64,000 nucleotides of DNA, from NCBI GenBank assembly GCA_044226015.1, contig JBGAHS010000004.1, positions 160,001-224,000 on the forward strand, given 5' to 3'. The notes under the pieces are model-generated. The model did no database searches, had not been told where the DNA came from, and worked only from the letters and a program-made list of their open reading frames with translations. Origin of the DNA: Candidatus Obscuribacteraceae bacterium. GTDB taxonomy: Bacteria > Cyanobacteriota > Vampirovibrionia > Obscuribacterales > Obscuribacteraceae. The position numbers and the translations under genes are program-made. Of the stretch, positions 824 through 1,925 are shown in pieces (position 1 is the stretch's first letter; every line of letters begins with the position of its first letter).

Positions 824-847
824 TGTTCTTTACCTTGAAAATTAAGT

Positions 848-1060
848 CCGGTTGCCTCTGATGCTCAATTCCGCAGCGGGAATTTTTCATTCGCATGGCC
901 TTGGATTTGTCGTGCTTTAGCACAGCTTCAGAAACAACCGGGTTTTTGGAGCGAGTTGAATTTCACAATTCAATTCGAAGGGCACCCGACTCGCGGAACA
1001 AAAAGAACTATGTTCAATTCGCCGCAGGCATTGCCTTCGTCTGCAGTAATTTTGTTCCAC
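848..1060 (-). ncRNA. Candidate structured RNA (cis-regulatory leader or sRNA) upstream of the slipin gene
   Basis: Several helices with G-U pairs that form only on the minus strand: 14-bp 941-928/861-848; 11-bp 1060-1050/1003-993; UUGAAUU-GUGA-AAUUCAA GNRA hairpin 973-956. Internal duplicated motif at 1027-1010 and 876-861. Confidence 0.6.
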
Positions 1061-1238
1061 TTATATAGAACTCAAAACCACGTTGTAAACAAAAAAACTC
1101 AGGAAAATCTTCTTTCTAAAATCTTGGTTTGAGATTGAACTCTTGGCATGATTTTTTCGTTTTAGAAATATGTTGAGTATTCAAGCCAGGTGATGTGCGC
1201 CTGGCGTCATTGTGCTGAATCCAGCCTGGAGGTTTATC

Positions 1239-1730
1239 ATGCCCAGCGCCGCTGCCCTTAGAGGTCAATTAAAATACAAGGTTCCTCAGATAAAGCTATG
1301 TCTTGTCCATGAGGGGCCCAAGCTGAAAGAATTGGTGTCAATAAGAACCCCGACCGATGCAGCTGCATTTTTTGACCCTCTTAAATTTGCGTCGGAAGAG
1401 CATTTTGTCAGTTTGCATCTAAATGCCAGGCACGAGGTAATCGGTGTTCACGAGGTATCACACGGGACGGTCTCCACTAGTCTTGTGCATCCAAGGGAAG
1501 TTTTCAAAGCGGCTCTTCTTGCCAATAGTTATGCGATCATTGTTTGTCATAACCACCCTTCAGGCTCGCGCTTGAGTGCAAGCCCTGAAGATATTGCAAC
1601 CACAGAGCAACTAGTGAAAGCATCGAATTTGCTTGGTGTCAGTCTGCTTGACCATTTGATAATAAGTAGAAACGAATCCGCGTTCAGTATTCGAGAAAAC
1701 CATCCCTACCTCTGGGGCGAAAAAAATTGA
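1239..1730 (+). CDS. RadC-like JAB/MPN-domain protein (stand-alone JAB domain)
   Basis: EHFVSLHLN...GTVSTSLVHPREVFKAALLANS...HNHPSG...SPEDIATT...LLDHLII; ATG at 1239 preceded by GGAGG. Confidence 0.9.
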   Translation: MPSAAALRGQLKYKVPQIKLCLVHEGPKLKELVSIRTPTDAAAFFDPLKFASEEHFVSLHLNARHEVIGVHEVSHGTVSTSLVHPREVFKAALLANSYAIIVCHNHPSGSRLSASPEDIATTEQLVKASNLLGVSLLDHLIISRNESAFSIRENHPYLWGEKN

Positions 1731-1850
1731 GCTCGTCAAAAGTAGTAGCGTGCCTACTACCTTCTTGTTTGCGTCTTTTGAATAGGCATAATTTTGTTTG
1801 GAGCAGTTGGTAGGGATATAAATCACTGAATGTCCCGTTTTTCCTTGTCT

Positions 1851-1880
1851 TTCCTTTCCTTTCCTTTCCTTTCCTTTCCT
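1851..1880. repeat. (TTCCT)6 simple repeat
   Basis: Read directly from the intergenic sequence. Confidence 0.85.
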
Positions 1881-1925
1881 TTGCTTCTCAGAAGCCTTTT
1901 ACTGGCAGGAGCTTAACCAGAAAAG

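Follow-up and report, generated by a model that had tools for sequence, protein, structure and literature searches.

What is the folded stretch of DNA in front of a slipin gene in Candidatus Obscuribacteraceae, and what might it do for a membrane protein? SPFH proteins are usually treated as membrane scaffolds, and their presence in RNA-repair operons is unexplained. The gene lies on the minus strand at the left edge of the window (the whole stretch of 64,000 nucleotides analyzed here), at positions 1-823, its stop codon straddling the edge. It encodes a single-SPFH, stomatin-like protein of 274 aa (Pfam Band_7, E 5e-31), the protein relatives of which are named slipin. Among solved structures, stomatin oligomers are the nearest to it (E 6e-42). 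The structure model of the slipin (pLDDT 87.7) shows an N-terminal hydrophobic helix at residues 3-29 (hydropathy 2.3), the SPFH domains and a long helix. From the analogy with stomatin, we infer that the slipin forms a cage-like oligomer.

Upstream of this gene, on the same strand, lies an RNA of about 195 nt, hereafter the slipin-leader RNA (the median length across homologues is 194 nt). The original prediction had described a highly structured, RNA-like leader on the strand of the gene, and all sequences that it quoted were found at their minus-strand coordinates. The structure itself was confirmed: the fold of 848-1044 on the minus strand had a z-score of -3.45, with one of 200 shuffles as good, versus -1.68 and 12 of 200 on the plus strand. 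The spacer between the RNA and the ATG (824-847, minus strand) is U-rich, with a purine-rich ribosome-binding region (AAGG, 836-833). It counts 24 nt (847-824), close to, though not exactly, the 25 nt first given.

In the source genome the RNA is single-copy, no further copies being found by blastn, nhmmer or our models R1 and R2. The scan against Rfam 15 returned no family at gathering score in the 64-kb window, nothing inside 848-1022 at E up to 10, and no match at E 0.05 in eight homologous loci. The view that no riboswitch class or existing Rfam family is present was thus borne out. A plain DNA search of 40 relatives gave short pieces only; the family is visible only via the slipin protein or via the models R1 and R2.

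Homologues and the link to the slipin gene

Homologues comprised seven loci from relatives and 163 loci from genome, metagenome and viral collections, the latter being a sample that has the best 80 of 406 and the best 80 of 434 confirmed stretches among its sources. They span at least 10 phyla. Carriers include Melainabacteria, Verrucomicrobiota, Acidobacteriota, Chloroflexota, Planctomycetota, Armatimonadota, Gemmatimonadota, Omnitrophota, Nitrospira, Anaeromyxobacter and Proteobacteria. Cultured, non-pathogenic carriers are Anaeromyxobacter oryzisoli (L081) and Ornatilinea apprima (L097), together with Methylobacterium bullatum (L236), which has domain B. In three viral or proviral contigs (L216-L218) the slipin gene ends a tRNA array and has the same kind of leader.

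A strict parser detected domain B in 111 of 151 loci versus 21 of 472 background chunks, and domains A and B together in 100 of 151 loci versus 7 of 472. Loci with wrong anchors or cut ends, and duplicates, were left out of the counts (12 loci for the U-run count; 19 for the T-arm, promoter, cross-pairing and start-region tests), and L116, L158, L202 and L205, with too little upstream DNA, were left out of the model searches. Model R1, which describes domain B, matched 153 of 159 slipin loci (58/60 and 95/99), compared with none of 30 paralogous SPFH loci and neither of two RtcB loci. Outside the training set it matched 94 of 100 slipin loci, many of them kin of training sequences.

Among 41 related genomes, the eight with the RNA were the same eight that had a slipin orthologue (at least 40% identity), seven of these eight being training sequences. 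The search of 150 genomes of the phylum with R1 gave ten new matches. All nine at E 1e-4 or better were directly 5' of slipin, and the tenth (E 0.021) was inside another gene. In another phylum the single new match was also directly 5' of slipin, while 150 genomes in each of two further groups, with only 26 candidates scored per genome, gave no new match. Every confirmed match was on the same strand as the slipin gene and strictly 5' of it, and in the genomes searched the RNA was not seen away from this side. The expected tie between a structured RNA and the slipin gene thus holds, and the matches show a near one-to-one link of the RNA with this slipin subfamily. The slipin-leader RNA is real, widespread, strongly covarying and absent from Rfam.

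Domain architecture of the slipin-leader RNA

Domain B (848-941, minus strand) is a three-way junction, defined by covariation, RNAalifold and model R1, the match of which in the window (844-943, 55.6 bits) is the single copy in the genome. The domain is closed by P4 (941-924/865-848). The hairpin P5 (923-912, GUGC-UAAA-GCAC) and a 2-nt purine linker follow, and then P6 (909-898/877-866) and P7 (892-889/883-880). A CAU bulge at 897-895, the pair G894-C878 and a C.C mismatch are also part of the fold. When 66 non-redundant short-type copies were aligned by sequence alone, 83.9% of the cells of domain B were paired and 34 of 35 pairs showed double changes. The covariation score was 0.606, versus 0.239 for shuffles and at most 0.205 with slid partners, for sequences chosen by a parser that demanded pairs near the core. 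This selection did not extend to P4, in which each of the 15 pairs covaries. P4, P6 and P7 were also recovered by RNAalifold without guidance. The 14-bp helix noted originally (941-928/861-848) is the conserved P4, and the GUGC-UAAA-GCAC hairpin is the conserved P5. The third helix noted there, AAUUCC-CGCUGC-GGAAUU, has a pair probability of 0.00; the inner hairpin is GAAU-GAAAA-AUUC (892-880), with a pair probability of 0.94.

The conserved letters of domain B concentrate at the 3-nt bulge, the invariant G-C pair and the Y.C mismatch. Such a three-way junction, placed 5' of one gene family, might be a small-molecule riboswitch or a self-cleaving ribozyme, and self-cleavage would yield RtcB-type ends. 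We regard this as very improbable, because the RNA has no Rfam match, conservation of the junction letters is slight, an expression platform was not found, and the gene is not a metabolic one.

Domain A (976-1039, minus strand) is a long bulged hairpin, supported by compensating changes and by model R2, the only match of which in the genome is the one in the window (973-1043, 35 bits). Its outer helix P1 (1039-1034/981-976) varies in register and has a 3- or 4-nt bulge. In P2, GCGG (1025-1022) pairs with CCGC (996-993); C1021 pairs with G999, and a terminal hairpin lies at 1015-1005. A conserved core of seven pairs, four of which were demanded by the parser that chose the sequences, was 93.9% paired in 75 sequences, with double changes in six of the seven. 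The outer stem occurs in two registers, each about 55% paired. When the transcript of this copy was folded from 1039, the conserved helix had a probability of 0.76-0.86. With the downstream bases included, single-sequence folding gave the core 0.02-0.93 in five examples and 0.06 in this copy.

The original prediction had closed its first domain differently, by a helix between 1060-1050 and 1003-993. This helix forms only with a transcript start at 1060, displaces the conserved GCGG/CCGC helix, and aligns with the extended -10 box of homologues. A TG-n-TATAAT-like box (score at least 5.5) was present in 37 of 60 stand-alone homologues and ended 16-21 nt before the GCAG anchor in 36 of them; a control window placed 40 nt farther upstream had such a box in 2 of 60. 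Array-type loci showed the box in none of 33 cases, and there the RNA often directly follows a tRNA gene. In this copy the predicted box (1049-1060, minus strand; predicted start about 1044) is weak and placed only by alignment with loci L003-L006, and a promoter scan of the window gave no call at 1049-1060. Contigs from the metatranscriptome runs described below extend no further 5' than 1035/1036. Since 1060-1049 aligns with the box of the homologues, it is probably a promoter element, and the proposed helix is probably not transcribed.

By eye, the predicted -10 region (1060-1050, and likewise in L003-L006) is complementary to the 3' strand of domain A over 7-11 bp, and a transcript starting further upstream would unfold domain A. 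This complementarity could be a coincidence or a genus-specific switch.

Between the two domains lies a module that the original model did not contain, seen through the homologues and decayed here. In this copy (942-975, minus strand) the T-loop letters UUCAACU (960-954) of a tRNA-like module are kept, and the T-stem and the D-loop GG are lost. A full T-arm, with a 7-nt T-loop on at least three pairs, was found in 74 of 92 homologues versus 0.3% of shuffles, and both of its loop-closing G-C pairs are invariant. It is absent in this copy and was not found in 18 of the 92, a few of which were cut by the stretch used. In 125 of 158 loci the 520 nt upstream contained the T-loop pattern, versus 0.027 expected per search window. 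A D-loop-like GG is often near the T-arm (5' of it in 27 of 74 and only 3' in 30 of 74, a count with no control run). D, anticodon and T arms occur together in few loci (L066, L069, L150, L183), with a weak or absent acceptor stem, and anticodon-like 7-nt loops, with at least ten different triplets, occur in 31 loci. ARAGORN found no tRNA in the window.

The GNRA hairpin noted originally at 973-956 does form in this copy (0.67-0.88), but it occupies the site of the D and T arms of the homologues. Judged from the sequences, it is a refolded remnant of the decayed T/D module. The copy of this genome has lost the tRNA elbow, so the indispensable core would seem to consist of domains A and B.

The description of the leader as a tandem of two like domains is not supported. 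The two domains differ in fold, and cross pairing between them (at least four pairs) was seen in one of 92 homologues, so that they fold independently. The motif CUGCGG...GARCAU, said to be shared by both, is indeed repeated in this copy, with a score reached by 40 of 2000 shuffles (p about 0.02), but a comparable repeat was found in only one of 96 homologues, and a tandem duplication was rejected. The motif repeat, like the GNRA hairpin and the first-domain helix, is thus specific to this copy, as chance folding or a mobile repeat would predict. Chance folding is nevertheless refuted by the covariation of domain B and the slipin-adjacent matches of R1, and single copies per genome with a fixed gene partner across phyla do not suit a mobile repeat; we give this explanation practically no weight.

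Expression, gene neighbourhood and possible function

In two metatranscriptomes of one study (X7 and X14), RNA contigs covered 853-1036. One contig spanned 856-1035 without mismatch, one 900-980, and one 951-1036 without mismatch and with adapter letters at its loose ends; a variant contig on 853-980 had its listed changes in a loop and linkers. Three of these four contigs showed no mismatch over the element. Neither run had a contig on the slipin gene, though absence of cover is no proof that the gene is silent. In a control 20-kb stretch with rpsL and fusA, none of 29 and none of 51 records were 99% alike in X7 and X14, which argues against DNA carry-over. The pattern is a weak hint of an abundant, stable and discrete RNA, contigs being blind to ends, strand and level, and existence of the RNA apart from the slipin mRNA is likewise hinted. 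A short piece of a foreign contig was also seen at 1104-1143.

A transcription terminator and a ribosome-site switch were both considered. In 19 of 132 copies, versus 3-4% of shuffles, at least five of the 12 nt that follow the outer helix were U, a noisy count since helix ends are often over-extended; with a U-run in so few copies there is no conserved terminator, and this reading was rejected. An anti-Shine-Dalgarno switch via CCUCC in domain B was rejected as well, since domain A, domain B and the B core paired with the start region of their own locus no better than with that of another (39, 50 and 44 of 90). No expression platform, whether terminator or ribosome-site sequestration, was found across the family; none is evident, and control through protein binding or mRNA stability is possible. 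Of the two roles originally offered, a co-transcribed ncRNA fits the evidence better than a cis-regulatory switch.

A cis-acting leader may still be envisaged, in which a protein, most simply slipin itself, binds the bulge of domain B, or a tRNA-acting nuclease cuts the elbow. This would set read-through, translation or stability of the slipin mRNA, and the stable fragment would be a by-product. The strict 5' position on the same strand in every confirmed match would be expected of such a leader, as would the predicted transcript start at the first base of the RNA; the excess of U-runs, noisy as it is, and the ability of the 3' strand of domain A to pair with bases before the ATG in this copy point the same way. 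A slipin of Anabaena is derepressed together with rtcB under translation stress, its membership of this subfamily not being established in the accessible part of that paper (PMC10272220). The equal pairing with own and swapped start regions, the lack of a conserved terminator and of an alternative A-B fold, and 11 hand-picked loci with 87-666 nt of unrelated DNA between the RNA and the start codon all speak against it. The longest such insert (L111:4323-4988) is repeat-rich and measures 666 nt, and HNH, rtcB and rtcA follow in this locus. On balance we find a cis-acting leader a somewhat doubtful explanation, though one to be taken seriously.

The gene neighbourhood was then compared across the family. 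It had been suggested that slipin genes sit in RNA-repair neighbourhoods and that rtcB or TROVE genes might be found at this locus. Downstream of slipin, beyond the left edge of the window, lies a gene that we take from its translation to be ispG-like, and no rtcB- or TROVE-like frame was recognized in the 15 kb beyond this edge. The source genome (92% complete) has no TROVE match, and RtcB is encoded elsewhere in it, away from the slipin locus. Upstream is a divergent RadC/JAB gene (1212-1730, plus strand; Pfam RadC). radC also adjoins the RNA and slipin in the genus loci L003, L004 and L006, and it is not among the recurring neighbours in other phyla; it is a conserved neighbour in the genus only, outside the RNA-slipin unit. 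In the DNA stretches of the 163 homologous loci, the neighbours included RtcB (23), RtcA (8), Ro60 (5) and HNH (17), and arrays of at least three tRNAs were present at 30. Any of RtcB, RtcA, Ro60 or a tRNA array was found at 44 loci and none at 119, and 60 of the 91 loci of at least 6 kb had neither repair gene nor tRNA array; these counts are not independent, the tRNA arrays being mostly verrucomicrobial. The suggestion thus holds for the family (44/163), with RtcB, RtcA, Ro60 and tRNA arrays enriched near its members, not for this locus.

Several further observations were made around these genes. The source genome has an array of 18 tRNAs (G000:C10:356333-358584) that is unlinked to slipin. 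In 25 of 163 loci a gene for a 198-aa protein with no Pfam match (L103:5933-6526) lies close to slipin, in most cases immediately following it. Repeated GGAAA-type pentamers occur at 1843-1882 (minus strand), between the terminator of a MATE gene and radC. An element of about 30 nt (1134-1165, plus strand) precedes radC and is conserved there in L003, L004 and L006. It recurs on the minus strand at about 783069 in C1, 315498 in C4, 336189 in C12, 1203564 in C11 and 375334 in C7. It is near-identical before genes that we take to be ComM-like and PriA-like and before two others, and weaker before a presumably RecJ-like gene. From its sequence, it is a candidate competence or DNA-repair regulon signal.

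The position of the RNA within tRNA arrays, beside RtcB and HNH genes, and the anticodon-like loops with at least ten triplets in 31 loci would also suit a free decoy or repair substrate, the RNA then being a tRNA mimic that cannot be charged and either sequesters anticodon nucleases or serves as a substrate of RtcB/RtcA. Domains A and B would then be only protective end caps, and the gene link would reflect shared regulation, not binding. Similar proposals appear in the accessible parts of papers on YrlA (PMC7790460), array tRNAs (PMC8421152) and a Pelobacter mutant tRNA (PMC3543383). This reading is improbable to us: the fixed letters in the bulges of A and B outlast the tRNA part, and plain caps would not need them, and R1 found no copy elsewhere in the arrays or genomes searched.

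Our preferred reading, to which we assign a probability of roughly 0.45, is that the slipin-leader RNA is a stable, tRNA-mimicking RNA that acts in tRNA damage as a Y-RNA-like adaptor or decoy for the predicted membrane cage of slipin. It would arise as the 5' part of the slipin message, made from the extended -10 promoter, or alternatively be cut out of a tRNA array, and trimming would shorten the transcript to the base of P4. Both bulged helices are likely protein-docking sites, for slipin first and RNA-repair enzymes second, since their letters are fixed while the surrounding stems vary freely. The T-loop and the nearby GG would likely form a tRNA elbow that draws tRNA-acting enzymes. Several facts weigh against an adaptor. 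This locus has no rtcB, rtcA or Ro60, 119 of the 163 homologous loci show neither repair gene nor tRNA array in the DNA available, the T-arm is lost in this copy and was not found in 18 of 92, and the invariable position 5' of slipin would equally be given by a cis-acting leader. Moreover, to our knowledge stomatin-type proteins are not known to bind RNA.

Comparison with known systems

The slipin-leader RNA is best filed as a kind of b7a-tRNA. These RNAs, predicted by Burroughs and Aravind in 2016, lie beside Band-7 and RtcB genes, sometimes with Ro60, and are experimentally unvalidated according to the available description (bioRxiv 10.1101/312249). The likeness consists in a tRNA-like RNA adjoining a Band-7/SPFH gene with a link to RtcB and sometimes Ro60. 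This copy does lie next to a Band-7/SPFH gene, but it departs from the b7a-tRNA in two features: it does not strongly resemble an authentic tRNA (no ARAGORN call, broken T-stem), and no RtcB gene is adjacent (23 of 163 homologous loci have one). In the family the tRNA part is reduced to a T-arm and GG or lost, and it is flanked by two covarying domains, which are absent from that available description. The slipin here is of the single-SPFH membrane type, and most loci have a sigma70-type box and lack RtcB. Searches of a largely open-access literature found no description of domains A and B, and the name b7a-tRNA in one paper.

In classical rtcR-tRNA-Band7-rtcB loci, among them L235, L234 and L251, the hairpin is similar, tRNA-like units are present, and some loci also have a B-like core. 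In the operon L235 the double-SPFH gene and rtcB are preceded by a hairpin, a pair of tRNA-like units and a fold like that of domain B, and R1 scored this fold at 16.9 bits (E 0.06), the best classical score and a weak one. Among 11 further classical loci R1 gave nothing at E below 0.9, and R2 gave nothing meaningful on classical double-SPFH loci. A relaxed B-core pattern was present in two of 11 classical leaders and the shared hairpin pattern in seven of 11. The slipin-leader RNA and the classical b7a-type leaders are thus probably distant branches of one superfamily, but the match is weak. Upstream of the double-SPFH gene in L010, L011, L245 and L246 the leaders are longer and comprise two linked hairpins, followed in the description by tRNA-like units and an extensive folded region; by eye their first hairpin resembles domain A.

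A tRNA mimic 5' of a stomatin-like gene is also described in Pelobacter carbinolicus. Pcar_R0061 is a non-chargeable mutant tRNA that precedes such a gene with rtcA and rtcB and was proposed as a substrate or guide (PMC3543383, accessible part). Compared by this description only, it differs in having a full cloverleaf and an RtcR operon, with no flanking domains described. In Anabaena, the slipin alr0740 is co-regulated and derepressed with rtcB and the trn operon under translation stress, in the TrcR regulon (PMC10272220); the part of that source at hand does not show alr0740 to belong to this subfamily or to carry this RNA. Stress-induced long tRNA arrays, or L-arrays, have been reported (PMC8421152), SPFH, stomatin and alr0740 not occurring in the text available, and an SPFH gene is found in a Pseudomonas rtc locus (PMC13086221, in part). 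The likeness to the L-array and TrcR systems lies in the 30 of 163 homologous loci that sit in tRNA arrays with RtcB/HNH neighbours.

As to function, the bacterial Y RNA (YrlA) offers the best analogy, being a stable RNA with a bulged protein-binding helix and a tRNA-like D/T domain, the gene of which lies beside that of a ring-forming partner (PMC4201824, accessible part). YrlA is bound by this partner and carries tRNA modifications; for the slipin-leader RNA the contigs give a hint of a discrete RNA. Membership of the Y-RNA family was nevertheless ruled out. The YrlA motif GNCGAAN0-1G near the 5' end occurred in none of 92 slipin-leader RNAs, and there is no Rfam Y-RNA match. YrlA has a Ro60/TROVE gene within about 4 kb, whereas this genome has no TROVE and Ro60 adjoins 5 of 163 loci; the partner here is an SPFH protein. 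YrlA's tRNA-like domain, with the T before the D arm, is enclosed by a stem joining the 5' and 3' ends, and such cross pairing was seen in one of 92 slipin-leader RNAs.

In the fuller picture, a membrane-anchored, stomatin-type cage and its dedicated RNA would form a widespread bacterial ribonucleoprotein, the RNA being docked through the bulged helices, in which the tRNA elbow captures damaged tRNAs, nucleases or ligases at the membrane. In this complete form the idea is speculative and seems to us rather unlikely. The vault particle is a cage of major vault protein, which has the SPFH fold, associated with small vault RNA. Major vault protein is a weak fold match to slipin (ranks 49-50), slipin being far closer to stomatin, and the source genome has no TROVE partner. 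Such a ribonucleoprotein, if it existed, would parallel the Y-RNA system without Ro60 and resemble the vault particle in a simple form. The family offers a compact RNA that is defined by covariation and has two candidate sites for protein binding, together with a natural variant without the tRNA part and cultured hosts. Whether RNA is bound by an SPFH cage thus becomes directly testable.
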